A stretch of 64,000 nt of DNA from contig JANJGN010000018.1 in assembly GCA_026770705.1 (NCBI GenBank), positions 80,600,001-80,664,000 of the forward strand, in the 5' to 3' direction. Both the position numbers and the translations under genes were made by a program. Below the pieces are notes generated by a model. That model did not search any database. It saw only the letters and a program-made list of their open reading frames with translations, and had not been told where the DNA came from. The stretch is from Isurus oxyrinchus. Taxonomy: Eukaryota. Shown piece after piece: positions 6,761 through 48,794 of this stretch. The first letter of the stretch is position 1, and every line of letters begins with the position of its first letter.

Positions 6761-7257
6761 AGCTCATGACCCAAAAATTGTGTCTCGTGACCCTACTCTG
6801 GGTTATGACTCAGAGTTCGGGAAGCCCTGTTATAGTGGAAAGTTAATGGATATTATTTAGACGCACTTCCAGAGGCATTTAATAAAGTACCTCATAAGAG
6901 AGGATATTAGCTAAAACTACATGGGATATGCAGCACAGAAACAGGCCTTTTAGCCCAAACAGTCCATGCTGGTATTTATTGTTATGGGTAGGGGGGTGAT
7001 GGTAGAATGGTTCTCCCTTTGTTCCAGGTCTCGGCCGACCAAGTGCTATAACTCTCGAGGACAGGCAAATGACATGTTTTCTCATAGGTTTTTAAAAAGA
7101 ATAATTGTTTATTACTCAACACCCAAAATCTGTACACAACATAACTCACTCACACAATCACACACATAAATACATGCACGGTCACAAGAAAAAGTGATTA
7201 CAAAAAAGGTAACATGCACTTAGGTCTTAAAAGTCAAAAAATCCACTGTTGTACTTG

Positions 7258-7458
7258 GATAAAAGCAAAATACTGCGGATGCTGGAAATCTGAAACAAAA
7301 ACAGAAAATGCTGGAAAAACTCAGCAGGTCTAACAGCATCAGTGGAGAGAGAAGCAGAGTTAACGTTTTGAGTCCGTATAACCCTTCTAGAAGAAAGATC
7401 ATACATAGATGCCGTCAGCCCTGCTGAATTTTTCCAGCATTATCTGTTCTGGTTGTGG
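7258..7458 (-). mobile_element. Short PLE terminal-repeat insertion with partial inverted copy
   Basis: Matches the terminal repeat of the PLEs in the window. Flanked by CACTGTTGTACTTG (7244-7257) and CACTGCTGTACTTG (7459-7472). Confidence 0.8.
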
Positions 7459-7989
7459 CACTGCTGTACTTGCTTCTTTCAAGATGATGGCTTGAAACAT
7501 TACATGCCTGTGATTCCCATTACGGTCCACTAAAGAAATAGAGGTTGGAGGTTTATGAAGTTGGCTTTGCAGTGGCTTACTGCTAGTAGCAGCAGGTTTC
7601 TCTGGCTTCACTCCAGTCAAGTTGTAGTCAAACCCCTGCAGTGAAAACCTGGTTTGATTCTTCACATAGGTAGGTAAAGCCCAGCCCAAATCCTTTGCCT
7701 CCCAATAGATTTTACGCAGGATCCTGTTCTTTTCCTGGTTTGGAACTCCTTTCTTTCTCTCCAAAACTGTGTCTTATTAAAAGCTCATTATCAAAAACCT
7801 GGTTTTTGTCATGTGACCATAGTATTTGCTTTTTCATTGTTCTTACAAATGGTTTCTGACAGTCTGGGCATTGACACACAATGGTGTTCCAGTTTTACCC
7901 ATTATGTAACCTTGTGATAGAATGGATTCTTTTCATACCCATTCTTTGCAGTTCCACTCTGAAGCCAAGAAGTCTGCAAGTCCATTGCT

Positions 7990-8720
7990 TTTTTTATTCA
8001 TTCACAGGATGTGGTCTTCGCTGGCTGGGCCTATTGCCCATCCCTTAAGAAGGTGGTGGTGAGCTGCCTTCTTGAACTACTGTAGTCCATGTGGTGAAGG
8101 TACACCCTCAATGGTGTTAGAAAGGGAGTTCTAGGGTTTTGATCCAGCGACAGTGAAGGAACGGCAATATATTTCCAAGTCACAATAGTGAGTGACTTGC
8201 AGGGGAACCTCCAGGTGATGGTGTTCCCATTTATCTGCTGCCCTTGTCCTTCTCGATGACATTGTTCGTGGGTTTGGAAGGTGCTGTCCAAGGAGCCTTG
8301 GTGAATTCCTACCATCTTGTAGATGGTACAGATTGTTGCTACTATGCGTTGGTGGTGGAGGGAGTGAATGACTATGGATGTGGTGCCAATCAAGCAGGCT
8401 GCTTTGTCCTGGATGATGTCAAGCTTCTTCAGTGTTGTGGGAACTGCACTCATCCAGGCAAGTGGGGAGTACTCCATCACACTCCTGACTTGTGCCTTGT
8501 AGATGGTGGACAGGCTTTGGGGAGGCAGGAGGTGAGTTACTTGTCACACTATTCCTAGCCTCTGACCTGCTCTTGTAGCCATAGTATTTATATGGCTTTT
8601 GTAGTTCTGTTTCTGGTCGATGGATGTTGATAGTGAGGGATTCAGTGATGGTAATGCCATTGAACATCAAAGAGCAATGGTTAGATTCTCTCTTGTTGGA
8701 TATGGTCATTGCCTGACACT
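7990..8720 (-). mobile_element. CR1/L2-group LINE 3' end
   Basis: MEYSPLAWMSA...LKKLDIIQDKAACLIG on the minus strand; TGAATAAAAAA-type tail near 7990. Confidence 0.85.
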
Positions 8721-9089
8721 TGGGACACTAGAAACGAGTGAACTAGTTTCAGAAATTATTTGGACAATGGCAGCCATTTTTCCACCATGAAAGATCTGTT
8801 GCATTTTAATGCCTTCTCAATTAAGTGTCCCAAAATGTTGCTTGCATTTTAATGTCTTACCCAGACATGCAGACTAGCTTCCAGGGCCTTCTGTAGTTCC
8901 ATGTATATTGGCAGAAAAGGAAAATGGCCAGCTGACCTCTCAACTCCATTTTCTTTCAAAAGCAGAGTGTCCATTATCTATTTTGTTTTATAAGCGAAGT
9001 GTCAATTTTCCATAAATCCGTGAGTCTATTTCTTGCATGAGCATGAGATATGCTCCTCCCATTTCTCTTCATCTAAATATACAGTTGTA

Positions 9090-10550
9090 ACTTATATTCT
9101 CTTCTCCCTTACATGCTTGTCCAGCTTCCCCTTAGATGCATTTATGCGATTTTCTTCAGCCATTCCCTGTTGTAGCAAATTCCACTTTCTCTCCATTATT
9201 TGGGGAAAGACGTTTCTTCTGAATTCCCTCTTGGTAACTATCTTATATTGATGGCATCTAGTTATGCTCTTCCCCACAAAAGGAAACATTCTCTCCATAT
9301 CTACTTTATTAAAATATTTCATAATTTTAAATACCTCTATTAGGCCACTCCTCAGCCCTCTTTTTTTCAAGAGAGAAGAAATCAAGCCGTCAATCCTTTC
9401 CTGATATGTACACCCACATATTTCTGGTGTCATCCTTGTAAATTTATTCTGCACCCCCCCTTCAGCGCCTCTATAATCTTTTTATAATGTGGTGACAGAA
9501 ATGCCCGCAGCACTGTGAAGTCTGGTCTGGCCAAGATTCTATACAGATTTAGCATAACTTCCCTACTTCTATCCCTTTAGAAATAAAGCCTGGTGCCTGG
9601 TTGCCTTTATTTATTGCTTTGCAAACCTAAGGCATACCTTTTGGTGATTATTGTATTTGTACTCTGAGATCCCTTTGTTCCTCTACCCTATCTAGACTTG
9701 TACCTTCCAAGTAATAAGTAACCCCACTATTCTTCCTACCAAAATGTACTGCCTCACATTTATCTGTGTCGAACTTCATTTGACAAATATTTGCCCAGTC
9801 TGCAAGTTTATTCATATCCACCAGTAATTTGTTGCAGTCCTTCTCAGTGTTGACTATCCCCCCAATTTGCTGTCATCAGCAAATTTAGAAATTGTGTTTT
9901 TGATTCCAACGTCCAAAAATCAAATTGAAGCTCATGGAGAATCGAAGGAAAATTATCAACCTGGTTAGGAAACCGGCTCGGGGGAAGAGACAGAGTAGAG
10001 AAAATGGGCAGGTAATCTAATTGACTGGATGTGATTCGTGTGTTCTGAAAGGATTTACGTTGGGTTCTCAACTACTGCATTCACCATTTTAGTTGGTGAA
10101 TAGATCATGTAGTAGAAAGTCACATATCCAAATTTGCTGATGACACAAAGGTTTGGGACATTGTTACCAGCATAGATAGTAGCATAACACTGCAAAGAAC
10201 TATTGAAAGATTAAGTGAATACGCAAAACTGTGGCAAATGGATTTCAATATAGGCAAATGCGTGATGATCCACTTTGGGCCTAAAAAAATGTTGAGCAGG
10301 GTACTTTCTAAATAATGAAAGGCTAGAAACAATGGTGGTCCTAAGAGGCTTGGGAGCCCAGATATATTGACCATTAAAATGCCATGAACAGGTACAGAAT
10401 TGAATGGAAAAGGCTATGGAATACTGGCCTTTATATCCAGAGGAATCAATGCAAGGGCATAGAAGTCATAGCTCAGAAATTCAAAGACATGGTTAGGCTA
10501 CAATTGGAGTATTGTGAGCAGTTCTTGGCATCACACTTTACGAAAGGTTT
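9090..10550. mobile_element. Two CR1 RT fragments in opposite orientations (9090-9905 minus, 9930-10550 plus)
   Basis: FADDSKLG / SKFADDTK motifs, VRLQLEYC, LIEVFKIMK; multiple stops. Confidence 0.8.
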
Positions 10551-10599
10551 AGGAAAACCTATTTGGTTGATGTGGTGTCACGTTTGAATAGCTAGCAGT

Positions 10600-47229: not shown

Positions 47230-47438
47230 CTGGCACAACTTCAGTCAGATACTCAAACCACTGATGCATATTGGAATCGCCAAGCAGATAAATGTTTTTT
47301 CTATGAAGACAGTCTGTAATTCTTGCAGGAGTGCAAAGTGATGAATATTGCAGGTCAGTGACATCCACTGGTCCTTATAATAAAAGGCAGATGGTGATAT
47401 CATGGGCTTTCCCCGGACACATTCTCCGAGAGCTGTGG
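47230..47438 (-). pseudogene. NXPE3: NXPE3-like exon carrying the catalytic GDS motif (frameshifted)
   Basis: TTTTCAG acceptor, GTTAGG donor. [34 protein letters not shown] / [34 protein letters not shown]. 209 nt where phase 1-1 requires a multiple of 3. Confidence 0.92.
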
Positions 47439-47643
47439 CTGAAAATAAAGAAAACTAAGAAACAGAAATTAAAATATACTATAATGTAGGTTATCAATAC
47501 ATTTTCAATTGTTAATCAATTTCCATGGCAATGACAAATTCCAGCAAAACGATTAGCTGTTGCTACAGTACGTGTACATATATAATGGGAAAAATAATCC
47601 AAGTAGTATTCTGAACAAGTCATCGTTTGGTAGTACAGAACTT

Positions 47644-47860
47644 GAGTATTGCTGAAAAAAGAGACATTTTTGTCAAAGCTTTTCATCTTGCATTCATCAG
47701 GACAATTGACAAGAAAATATCAATGCCAACCAATCAGCACTCTCTTCTCATACAGTATAAATATGCTGTTTCCCCTGACATTGGTATTTTCTTGTGAATT
47801 GCCCTGATGAGTGCAAGATGAAAAGCTTCGATACAAAAATCTCTTTTTTCAGCAATATTC
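47644..47860. ncRNA. Fold-back element with a hammerhead motif in each arm
   Basis: Inverted arms 47644-47725 and 47779-47860. Plus arm CUGAUGA-GUGCAAGAU-GAAA-AGCU-UC. Minus arm UUGUC-CUGAUGA-AUGCAAGAU-GAAA-AGCU-UU-GACAA. Confidence 0.7.
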
Positions 47861-48432
47861 TGAACAAGATTGTGTGAATGGGTAAATGCACCGCCTGGTG
47901 TGTCACTGATAAATTATAACCTCTCGTATACAAGGCTGTCAACTTTCTCCAGAAAAGATGAAGGAAAGAGCAAATAAAACATGAAAGTAACACCTCACCC
48001 CTGACTCCTAACTACTGGCTTTTTTGAAATAGTTCCAGTCCAAGCCCCTTGCACTGCTTTTGGCAATAGAGGCTAAACAAGAGTCTGCTGACTGTACCTG
48101 TTATCCTTGCTATAGAATATGGAGAATATGAACTATTTCTGGGATATCTCACAGTTCATTATGTATTCAATCCAAAACTCCAGAATACCCACTATTTTAA
48201 CTAACTGCAAGTGTCTTTTACAGCCAAAGATGTATTCAACATTCTTAAATGTATTTGAATAGCAAGAGTAGCATTGGATTACAATTGTTCAGCAAAATAC
48301 CTCACTGAAATTGCAGTCTATCTTTGTTTTGCAGTCTAGTTCCCTTCCTGAGCTAGAGGGACCGTTGGCAGTAACTTTCTTGCTGTCCTGCTGATGTATC
48401 ACATACCTGCTCCCAGGCACGGATTCCTTGGG

Positions 48433-48645
48433 TCTGACAGCATCTGTGGCGAGAAAGACAGAGTTAACTTTTGGAGTCCATATGACTCTTCATCAGAAAA
48501 TTTTCATCAGTTCTGATGAAGAGTCATACGGACTCAAAATTTTAACCCTGTCTTCGTCTCCACAGATGCTGTCAGACCTGCTGAGTTTTTCCAGCAATTT
48601 TTGTTTTTGTTTCAGATTTCCAGCATCTGCAGTATTTTGCTTTTA
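48433..48645 (+). mobile_element. Mini PLE insertion made of head-to-head terminal repeats, 14-bp TSD
   Basis: ACGGATTCCTTGGG (48419-48432) and ACAGATTCCTTGGG (48646-48659). TCATCAG (minus-strand core) near 48490 and CTGATGA at 48513-48519. Confidence 0.85.
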
Positions 48646-48794
48646 ACAGATTCCTTGGGGACAGTTTCCATTTTAAGCAGTGACAGAAACCGGTGATAGT
48701 GGATCAGCCACCTATTATACACCCTTTCTTTATACACTGGATATATTATTGTGGGGGTGGGGCAGGGAAATTGAGCAAAGAATGAGACACCAAC

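Follow-up and report, generated by a model that had tools for sequence, protein, structure and literature searches.

Short insertions of a Penelope-like element with clustered 5' ends and 14-bp target-site duplications in a shark genomic window

Five short insertions in a 64-kb stretch of the Isurus oxyrinchus genome (the window, 64,000 nt in all) are, by sequence comparison, ends of a Penelope-like element (PLE), putatively of Neptune type, with a GIY-YIG endonuclease, and there is about an even chance that they arose when its reverse transcriptase (RT), primed internally near the front of the element RNA, ran off the RNA 5' end, which is predicted to coincide with base 1 of hammerhead stem I. 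This reading is based on two 3' sites, the clustering of 5' ends at the stem I edge, head-to-head arms, templated junction bases and five 14-bp target-site duplications (TSDs). No earlier report of a fixed 14-nt stagger or a fixed 5' start was found in the literature searched; solo and inverted pseudo-LTRs (pLTRs) are already known. The accessible parts of PMC12602865 and PMC12910113 contain nothing on TSDs or 5' ends of PLEs.

The element and its insertions

Decayed RT and GIY-YIG sequences at 206-2400 and 55806-56745 are collinear with an 889-aa RT-GIY-YIG protein, as in endonuclease-bearing (EN+) PLEs, and sequence comparison places the closest relatives of the PLE copies in rays and sharks. 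The Pfam GIY-YIG match lies marginally below the cut-off (E=1.4e-4, 22.5 bits; cut-off 22.6). It is preceded by a CX2-5CxxC linker, a feature common to Neptune and Nematis, whose C-x4-C part is invariant in all eight rows of an alignment with relatives and whose third cysteine is present in seven of the eight, being decayed in the window copy. Inverted 5'-truncated copies and pLTRs occur in four head-to-head insertions, and a full partial-tandem copy was not found in the window. The PLE ORF start was not found, and none of 20 candidate proteins opens with the open frame of the repeat. Between 33,000 and 68,000 contigs per DNA run were aligned, a depth that is not read as copy number. Scans of viral contigs returned no further copies by exact motif and no PLE among 30 protein-based candidates; exact-motif matches in metagenomes (three) and genome contigs (two) were rejected as chance 21-22-mers in bacterial coding DNA.

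The census comprises 15 arms in 11 insertions from this one 64-kb window (Table 1). An earlier note on this DNA had listed five insertions, all of which are real, but six further ones had been omitted. Its description of the inserts as mostly or only terminal repeat fails for 27860-28470, where only ~212 of 611 bp are repeat and the remainder is PLE 3' UTR, with 69% identity to the 3' UTR of the GIY-YIG copy. The three inverted second copies that it reported (at 7258, 27860 and 48433) were confirmed.

Table 1. Insertions, arms and flanking duplications in the window; 5' ends are numbered from the first base of stem I (+1).
Feature	Position	Strand	Remarks
Insert 1, direct arm, full tail	7258..7390	-	5' end in hammerhead core, ~+3 to +10
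Insert 1, inverted arm without tail	7391..7458	+	Internal deletion; 5' end ~+8 to +10, by eye
Insert 2, solo terminal repeat without 33-nt tail	15559..15659	-	5' end +1 of stem I
Insert 2, 16 extra bases	15660..15675	-	Probably templated snap-back; low complexity
Insert 3, long direct arm	27860..28390	-	Terminal repeat 27860-27993 plus ~400 nt of PLE 3' UTR
Insert 3, inverted arm	28394..28470	+	5' end +2; short microhomology at join
Insert 4, solo terminal repeat, full tail	43658..43793	-	5' end -1
Insert 5, inverted arm	48433..48498	-	5' end +3
Insert 5, junction spacer, 10 nt	48499..48508	+	Apparently templated from hammerhead core; by eye
Insert 5, direct arm, full tail	48509..48645	+	5' end +1
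5'-truncated decayed PLE	55806..57279	+	RT thumb, CX4CxxC-type linker, GIY-YIG (56395-56736), 3' UTR, terminal repeat from 57143
5'-truncated copy with GIY-YIG end	11746..12444	+	9-bp duplication 11736-11744/12445-12453; counter-example to 14
Sixth insertion, head-to-head, omitted from the earlier note	13962..14121	.	Inverted arm from ~+11 to +14; direct arm from ~+69
Copy with 143 nt of 3' UTR	48788..49009	+	3' end ~+79; clean TSD absent
Oldest, longest copy	206..2400	-	Decayed RT, GIY-YIG and terminal repeat; TSD not recovered
45-bp fragment	11084..11128	-	Starts ~+29 to +36; only arm fitting a hammerhead-cut 5' end; TSD not found
TSD left/right, insert 1	7244..7257 / 7459..7472	+	13/14, 1 mismatch, score 11.5
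TSD left/right, insert 2	15545..15558 / 15676..15689	+	14/14, 0 mismatches, score 14
TSD left/right, insert 3	27846..27859 / 28471..28484	+	Within CR1-like LINE; 12/14, 2 mismatches, score 9
TSD left/right, insert 4	43644..43657 / 43794..43807	+	Within LINE; 14/14, 0 mismatches, score 14
TSD left/right, insert 5	48419..48432 / 48646..48659	+	13/14, 1 mismatch, score 11.5

Target-site duplications

The direct repeats flanking the five inserts have a maximal match of exactly 14 bp each, with 0-2 mismatches, and the duplications described earlier are thus all real. Roughly 10 of 297 random position pairs reach a score of 9 and about three reach at least 10, so that the pair at 27846 is weak on score alone. 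When insert 3 is removed together with one 14-mer, however, an unbroken CR1-like reading frame is restored, and the empty site of insert 4 (43644) aligns to three paralogous LINE copies elsewhere in the window, each with a single occurrence of the 14-mer. By these empty-site proxies, the duplications of inserts 3 and 4 are confirmed at the sequence level as true TSDs; a proxy was found for none of inserts 1, 2 and 5. Five of the six clean duplications in the window are 14 bp long, the exception being the 9 bp at 11746-12444, which supports inside the window the 14-nt endonuclease stagger that had been suggested; the peak at 14 rests on this one window. Two further cases are less clear: a possible 14-bp TSD of 55806-57279 (55792-55805/57280-57293) matches at 11/14 positions in a target that is already tandem, and the decayed duplication around 13962-14121 (13 vs 15 bases with an indel) is compatible with ~14. 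There is no target-site consensus among the five sites.

Ends of the arms and a possible run-off mechanism

As had been claimed, the terminal repeat carries a predicted minimal hammerhead. It lies on the sense strand of the element, and across nine arms 96% of the positions in stems I and II are paired. The core is present with variants, position A6 being U in six of nine aligned arms. In insert 4, positions 43754..43792 (-) form what we take to be a minimal type I hammerhead motif with U in place of A at core position 6, and alignment predicts the cut between 43758 and 43757, after +35. Two-sided covariation of the stems was not seen among the nine arms. An Rfam scan at gathering score returned no match in the window and no hammerhead model, and an E-value scan of 48400-49050 returned 13 sub-threshold matches, none of them to a hammerhead; hairpin models matching the inverted repeat scored highest.

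The 5' ends of eight of the 15 arms lie between ~-3 and +14 relative to the start of stem I (one arm by eye), with a hard upstream edge near +1, and five arms read through this edge. The pile-up at stem I noticed earlier is hence borne out in the window, although the two inserts then counted understated it. If the five long arms supply the reference rate of truncation, a 25-nt zone, chosen after the data had been seen, gives the cluster a P of ~3e-10 when arms are counted and 8e-8 when insertions are counted. Relative to the predicted cleavage site, the same eight arms begin ~21-38 nt upstream, and at most one of the 15 could begin at that site (near +36). Since the 5' ends thus lie ~35 nt upstream of the cut, they are not ribozyme-cut products, and the RT did not stall inside the ribozyme.

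An initiator-like motif surrounds the first base of stem I, and a TATA-like box precedes that base by 28-30 nt. At 57114..57147 (+), we take the sequence to contain a TATA-like box at -29 and an initiator-like motif around +1 (57143). The initiator-like 7-mer is present in all five long copies and the TATA-like box in four, at -28 to -30 (30 nt upstream of +1 in the long arm of insert 3, 27860..28390), being absent from the oldest copy. Against a transcription start at this position, initiator-like 7-mers are common, with 11 others in the 403-nt 3' UTR, and the TATA-like match is weak; in favour of it, none of those 11 has a TATA-like box. The Penelope transcript begins within the pLTR (PMC2377424), and the same TATA and Inr-like arrangement is described for a rotifer pLTR (PMC3846280).

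In the window and in four sequencing runs, 3' ends fall at +101 to +104 and at +136/137, 33 nt apart, corresponding to the optional 30-40 bp PLE tail. The evidence from the runs, among which X20-X24 (shares 0-0.21) were left aside, consists of contigs: loose-end peaks at 27857-27859 and 27890-27893 occur in all four, with up to 70-225 contigs per position for 3' ends in the DNA runs X1 and X2. These peaks match the internal two-site initiation, accompanied by cleavage and extension of both strands, reported in PMC11167929 for the Anolis protein, and thereby support the run-off model. Among the 12 of 38 joints listed, at least six leave at 27984-27992 and re-enter at 27892-27920. Counting against the model, the contig listing shows no pile-up of starts, and none of the 24 loose ends listed (567 further) lies at stem I, an absence which a private substitution of the reference at 27988 may explain. 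Depth changes across stem I by ~8-fold in X1 and 4.5-fold in X2, the step being absent in X13; this step is not a copy number.

In the run-off model, the GIY-YIG endonuclease would nick the two strands 14 nt apart, and one or both 3'-OH ends would prime cDNA, the use of both giving an inverted pair. Free cDNA ends would be joined via microhomology or snap-back. Longer copies would arise when cDNA synthesis is primed at this site within the second, downstream repeat of a tandem transcript, with scattered truncation afterwards; the position of the 5' end would not depend on the hammerhead. More tentatively, a strong-stop-like cDNA might be integrated routinely: transcription would start at the first base of stem I, priming would occur ~103 or 136 nt downstream with run-off of the RT, and a protein dimer whose two endonuclease domains are held a fixed distance apart would cut the 14-nt stagger and prime both strands. 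Regeneration of the pLTR and the origin of inverted ends are stated to be open in PMC2377424, PMC3846280 and PMC11167929. If true, run-off and subsequent template jumping would provide one mechanism for solo, inverted and tandem pLTRs, and would also cover the minimal hammerheads that are scattered in their thousands through animal genomes.

Related systems and alternative explanations

The Neptune and Nematis EN+ PLEs (Craig et al., 2021; PMC8557442) share with the present element an RT, a cysteine linker plus a GIY-YIG domain at the C-terminus, heavy 5' truncation, an inverted 5'-truncated copy at the 5' end, the optional tail and a hammerhead in the terminal repeat. Their 5' ends are variably truncated, whereas eight of 15 arms share one edge here; their microsatellite target is absent here, and a 14-bp TSD was not found in the literature. 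As far as the accessible part of PMC3846280 describes them, Pen1-Pen6 of Adineta vaga are similar in that pLTRs occur solo and head-to-head, the inverted junction contains palindromes, the tail is 31 bp long, the pLTR has TATA and Inr-like motifs and TSDs may be present or absent. They differ in TSDs of 8, 9 and 10 bp, in pLTRs of ~190-220 bp and in very low copy number, set against the contig counts given above. For Anolis Poseidon PAc in vitro, the accessible part of PMC11167929 reports that two internal RT start sites yield the tail, that both strands are cut and extended and that hammerhead cleavage is dispensable; it gives no TSD length. That element belongs to the Poseidon clade and prefers ATT in AT-rich DNA, unlike the consensus-free targets found here. 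With its great abundance, sharp 5' edge, two RT start sites and narrow TSD length, this shark family would provide a genome-scale record of the reaction.

The alternative that survives best, though we consider it unlikely, is that the cDNA folds back after copying the self-complementary stem I, quits the RNA and self-primes or is joined, the +1 edge being structural and not a transcription start. It is the nearest to the stalling idea of the earlier note. Self-priming has been proposed for PLEs (PMC3846280), the junctions of inserts 1 and 5 are palindromic, and the 16 extra bases of insert 2 include an 11-nt arm complementary to the bases immediately 3' of stem I together with an 8-bp hairpin. 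Of five copies folded as RNA, three are predicted to form a hairpin from +1 to +39 at -7 to -10.6 kcal/mol. The predicted cDNA hairpin is weak (-2.7 to -5.4 kcal/mol), however, five arms read through, snap-back could equally follow run-off, and the spacing of the TATA-like box is left unexplained. Stalling at the ribozyme as originally worded does not fit, because the cDNAs include the entire ribozyme and stop only on its far side.

It is improbable that a distinct non-autonomous, SINE-like master with its start at +1 is being mobilised in trans; the most plausible candidate would be the subfamily that comprises inserts 2, 3 and 4. Non-autonomous PLEs are known, and these inserts form a well supported clade (100/98) in which A6 is changed to U and all three copies have stops in all three frames of the repeat, where one frame stays open in other subfamilies. 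Yet insert 3, itself a member, includes 400 nt of 3' UTR, two or more subfamilies contain minis, and the stops may be irrelevant because the ORF start was not found. In a tree of 12 arms, whose branches are mostly weak, short and long arms share subfamilies and are interspersed, with four label changes against a shuffled mean of 4.1 (311 of 500 shuffles were as low), at odds with the single non-autonomous family suggested before.

Slightly less probable still is a 3' splice site at the AG at +1/+2, as in Drosophila virilis Penelope, with the edge derived from spliced or splice-cut RNA. In D. virilis, transcription starts 121 nt upstream of the intron end, which maps to helix I; the equivalent AG here follows a pyrimidine tract (YAG in five of five long copies), which counts against the run-off model. 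The whole UTR strand is pyrimidine-rich, though, the minis share no first exon upstream, AG is kept in three of them, and none of the 15 joints listed resembles an intron ending at this AG.

It is very unlikely that 5' truncation was simply random and TSD length broadly variable, with the patterns due to small-sample chance and selection in the earlier note. Such a process would accommodate the 9-bp duplication, the three of 11 insertions without a recoverable TSD, the rotifer TSD lengths (PMC3846280, accessible part) and the very short insertions usual for PLEs (median 128 bp in Chlamydomonas). Within the repeat, nonetheless, eight of ten 5' ends are confined to 15 of the 94 nt (P ~1e-5; by insertion 6/8, 3e-4), and five equal TSD lengths have a P of ~3e-4 if the modal length is assumed to hold a 13% share.

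Least probable of all, and largely refuted within the window, is the retrozyme-like element of the earlier note, in which the PLE protein inserts RNA monomers that the hammerhead has cut and that may be circular. Animal non-LTR retrozymes (PMC7229834; bioRxiv 10.64898/2026.07.22.740005) derive from pLTRs, with one chondrichthyan case, and are likewise short, non-coding and equipped with a type I hammerhead, dispersed monomers being among them, the 45-bp fragment begins near the cut site and some contig joints, whose kind is not given, may be head-to-tail, but retrozymes are defined by head-to-tail tandems cut at the ribozyme, whereas the inserts are solo or head-to-head with ends off the cut site, none of the 11 insertions holds two or more head-to-tail hammerhead units, there is no circular permutation, and the core A6 is mostly U. 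The case is also a warning that a solo hammerhead-bearing repeat should be classed as a retrozyme only where its ends coincide with the cut site. For metazoan PLE minimal hammerheads, 5' ends and TSDs are not mapped in the accessible part of PMC4209133; these motifs resemble the present one in an unpaired base before stem II and the lack of a real helix III, and they are mostly single motifs ascribed to truncated PLEs, with some close opposite-strand pairs.

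Element identity and terminal repeat

The window consists of vertebrate DNA rich in repeats, with pieces of LINEs and exons of the NXPE family. Its decayed reverse transcriptase (RT) and GIY-YIG sequences (206-2400 and 55806-56745) run collinear with an RT-GIY-YIG protein of 889 aa. The GIY-YIG peptide (56395-56736) has all of its best 10 relatives, at 59-65% identity, in rays, skates and sharks, which makes a cartilaginous fish the very likely host. A C-x4-C-x2-C linker motif is present, which, according to PMC8557442, sets Neptune and Nematis apart from Penelope/Poseidon. By the tests applied, the element is an EN+ Penelope-like retrotransposon (PLE) of the Neptune/Nematis type.

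The terminal repeat (pLTR) carries a predicted minimal type I hammerhead ribozyme, comprising a 4-bp stem I, the core, an unpaired base, a 5-bp stem II, GAAA and a nearly absent helix III, with a predicted cut after +35 (+1 being the A that opens stem I on the sense strand). The motif was called with the hammerhead consensus. The stems are 96% paired vs 20-53% in slid controls, two-sided covariation in the stems and a hammerhead match in Rfam were not found, and core position 6 is U in six of nine arms (single copies of the repeat within an insertion). The same minimal architecture is described in PMC4209133. In two subfamilies, CAG/GTA at ~+82 (43706-43714 (-) and equivalents) is a good splice-donor match that the subfamily of inserts 1 and 5 lacks, and in some copies an ATG at ~+57 follows a pyrimidine tract and CAG; an intron or an ORF start is possible. 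A search for the ORF start of the element did not find one.

A profile search of the window identified 15 arms in 11 insertions (E <= 2e-6), with no further match below 0.36 and nothing below 2.1 in a reversed-window control. Five of these insertions (inserts 1-5) had been described in the earlier note as mostly or only terminal repeat, three of them with an inverted second copy. The inverted arm was confirmed in three of the five; the description of their content fails for insert 3, which is no mini copy: ~400 of 611 bp are PLE 3' UTR (69% identical to that of the GIY-YIG copy).

Features of the window (TSD, target-site duplication; edge, arm start at ~-3 to +14)
Feature	Position	Strand	Remarks
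Insert 1	7258-7458		TSD 14 bp, 1 mismatch; both arms at edge
Insert 2	15559-15675		TSD 14 bp, 0 mismatches; at edge
Insert 3	27860-28470		TSD 14 bp, 2 mismatches; inverted arm at edge
Insert 4	43658-43793		TSD 14 bp, 0 mismatches; at edge
Insert 5	48433-48645		TSD 14 bp, 1 mismatch; both arms at edge
Other insertion	11746-12444	+	Clean 9-bp TSD
Other insertion	13962-14121		Decayed TSD, 13 vs 15 bases with 2-base indel, compatible with ~14; inverted arm at edge
GIY-YIG copy	55806-57279	+	Decayed TSD, 11/14, target already short tandem repeat, compatible with ~14
NXPE/neurexophilin-family exon	13086-13457	-	Resembles 16346-16963 by eye
NXPE/neurexophilin-family exon	16346-16963	+	Pfam NXPE4_C 1.6e-50
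NXPE/neurexophilin-family exon	52204-52716	-	Pfam Neurexophilin 9.6e-20
ORFs resembling Harbinger-type transposase and its Myb-like partner	39996-40367, 53876-54490, 60697-61062	-, +, -	By eye
SGNH-esterase-like then AP-endonuclease-like ORF, presumably front of CR1-type LINE	57598-59172	+	By eye

Target-site duplications

The maximal direct repeat is exactly 14 bp at all five inserts, as the earlier note had reported with zero to two mismatches. Among 297 random position pairs, ~3% reach the score of the weakest pair and ~1% those of the others. For inserts 3 and 4 the duplications are true TSDs because empty-site proxies fit: once insert 4 and one duplication are taken out, what is left is collinear with the host LINE's three other copies in the window, and removal of insert 3 restores an open CR1-like frame. 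No such proxy was found for inserts 1, 2 and 5. Across the 11 insertions, there are five clean 14-mers, one clean 9-mer, two decayed duplications compatible with ~14 bp and three insertions without TSD. Five identical lengths have a P of ~3e-5 under a flat 7-20 range and of 3e-4 with the modal length holding 13%, both nulls being our own assumptions and the five inserts having been selected in the earlier note. L1 TSDs likewise peak near 15, so that 14 itself is unremarkable and narrowness is what counts. In this one window, the narrow TSD length is a sharper feature than the usual PLE anatomy. The five target sites have no consensus in common. The target of insert 2 sits between 8-bp inverted repeats (15536-15543/15688-15695) that overlap the TSD ends, and the empty site could therefore form a hairpin.

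A non-random 5' edge and its possible origins

Eight of the 15 arms start at ~-3 to +14 (the inverted-arm start of insert 1 was read by eye across a deletion), five extend 143-2055 nt further upstream, and two start downstream, at ~+69 and ~+29 to +36. With the long arms' truncation rate as the null, this clustering in a 25-nt zone, picked after inspection of the data, has a P of ~3e-10 by arm and ~8e-8 by insertion. The pile-up at stem I, noted earlier for two inserts, is present in eight arms; the proposed stalling at the ribozyme does not fit in that form, because the clustered cDNAs copied the ribozyme in full, which makes them neither products of its cleavage nor stalls inside it. The non-random edge points to an RNA start and not to ribozyme action.

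In all five long copies, +1 coincides with the A of an initiator-like match to YYANWYY, the initiator consensus. Four of them have a TATA-like box at -28 to -30, whereas the 403-nt UTR has 11 further initiator-like sites, all without such a box. PMC3846280 describes a rotifer pLTR with a TATA box 20 bp upstream of an Inr-like motif, and PMC2377424 places a D. virilis transcript start within the pLTR. Outside support for the edge is mixed. On contigs placed on 27825-28034 (33,261-68,469 per DNA run), six of the 12 joints listed (of 38) exit at 27984-27992 and re-enter at 27892-27920 (P ~1e-4 if uniform), the kind of joint being undistinguished and the reference having a private base at 27988. 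Summed depth across stem I, which is not a copy number, drops ~8-fold in DNA run X1 and 4.5-fold in X2, with no drop in a further run, X13; among the 24 rows listed (567 more), no loose ends fall at stem I.

Copies stop 3' at ~+103 or ~+136, and loose-end peaks occur at 27857-27859 and 27890-27893 in all four public runs (three organisms). These two end sites are the optional PLE tail, which PMC11167929 ties, for an Anolis protein in vitro, to two internal RT start sites; there, the protein cuts and extends both strands and is a predicted dimer, without need for hammerhead cleavage. Three arms (28470, 49009, 48433) end 3' at ~+71 to +79, short of both main RT start sites, and a third, weaker priming zone is possible.

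In a full run-off model, to which we give an even chance of being correct, transcription would begin at +1, RT would prime at the start-site copy near the RNA front and run off after ~103-136 nt, nicks 14 nt apart would prime one strand or both, cDNA ends would be joined via microhomology, and long copies would originate at the downstream repeat within a tandem transcript. What the window itself shows is two 3' start sites, a 5' edge at stem I, arms placed head-to-head, junction bases that look templated and 14-bp duplications in five inserts. In inserts 2 and 5, the bases at the junction seem to have been copied from element sequence close by, which fits joining of free cDNA ends by snap-back or microhomology.

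Fold-back termination could be invoked for the edge instead, and is unlikely given the weak cDNA hairpin over the stem I region. A separate non-autonomous master is less probable again. Inserts 2, 3 and 4 belong together in a subfamily (94-97% identity, support 100/98) in which stops interrupt every one of the repeat's three frames and whose master was perhaps defective. Inserts 1 and 5 fall outside this subfamily (81-86%), and to both groups the GIY-YIG copy is 84-88% identical. Against such a master, and against the single non-autonomous family proposed earlier, short and long arms are intermixed in the tree (four changes vs a shuffled mean of 4.1, most branches weak), one of the outcomes that the earlier note had itself named as refuting. 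A splice site is a live rival because the AG at +1/+2 follows a pyrimidine tract and, according to PMC2377424 and PMC4209133, helix I is where a 75-bp intron of D. virilis, located 46 nt past the start, comes to its end; as the minis have no first exon in common and the AG is retained in three, splicing is nevertheless a long shot. Chance is highly improbable, with eight of the 10 5' ends within the repeat falling in 15 of 94 nt (P 1e-5; 3e-4 by insertion). A retrozyme is scarcely credible, since only one of 15 arms, a 45-bp fragment without TSD (~+29 to +36), could begin at the cut site.

Comparison and further observations

Non-LTR retrozymes are tandem units according to bioRxiv 10.64898/2026.07.22.740005 and PMC7229834, a definition under which, supplementary family lists aside, the shark inserts do not qualify, contrary to the retrozyme-like element suggested earlier as one option. 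PMC3846280 already reports pLTRs that stand alone or are inverted with palindromes at the junction, as well as tails and 8-10 bp TSDs, while PMC9977147 and PMC8969392 describe PLE insertions that are very short (median 128 bp) and TSDs of variable length. A 14-bp PLE TSD, a 5' edge at stem I and a strong-stop model were not found in full-text searches that took in few subscription papers and not Repbase. The inserts are mostly ordinary PLE anatomy, with the narrow TSD and the non-random 5' edge as two sharper features; these would gain in interest should run-off with a fixed stagger prove true across the genome.

Of the sequence words in the shark PLE stretch, a share of 0.21 also occurs in a coral metatranscriptome (run X20), which may reflect contamination or the conserved portion of a related element. 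Five chance matches of 21-22 bases in apparently homologous bacterial coding sequences (L001-L005) are unrelated to the PLE inserts. The occurrence of NXPE exons in both orientations suggests a small gene cluster. An inverted repeat of at least 228 bp (4075-4300/5158-5385, 96% identical) surrounds short ORFs with a charged repeated peptide and is possibly a young DNA transposon or an inverted duplication.
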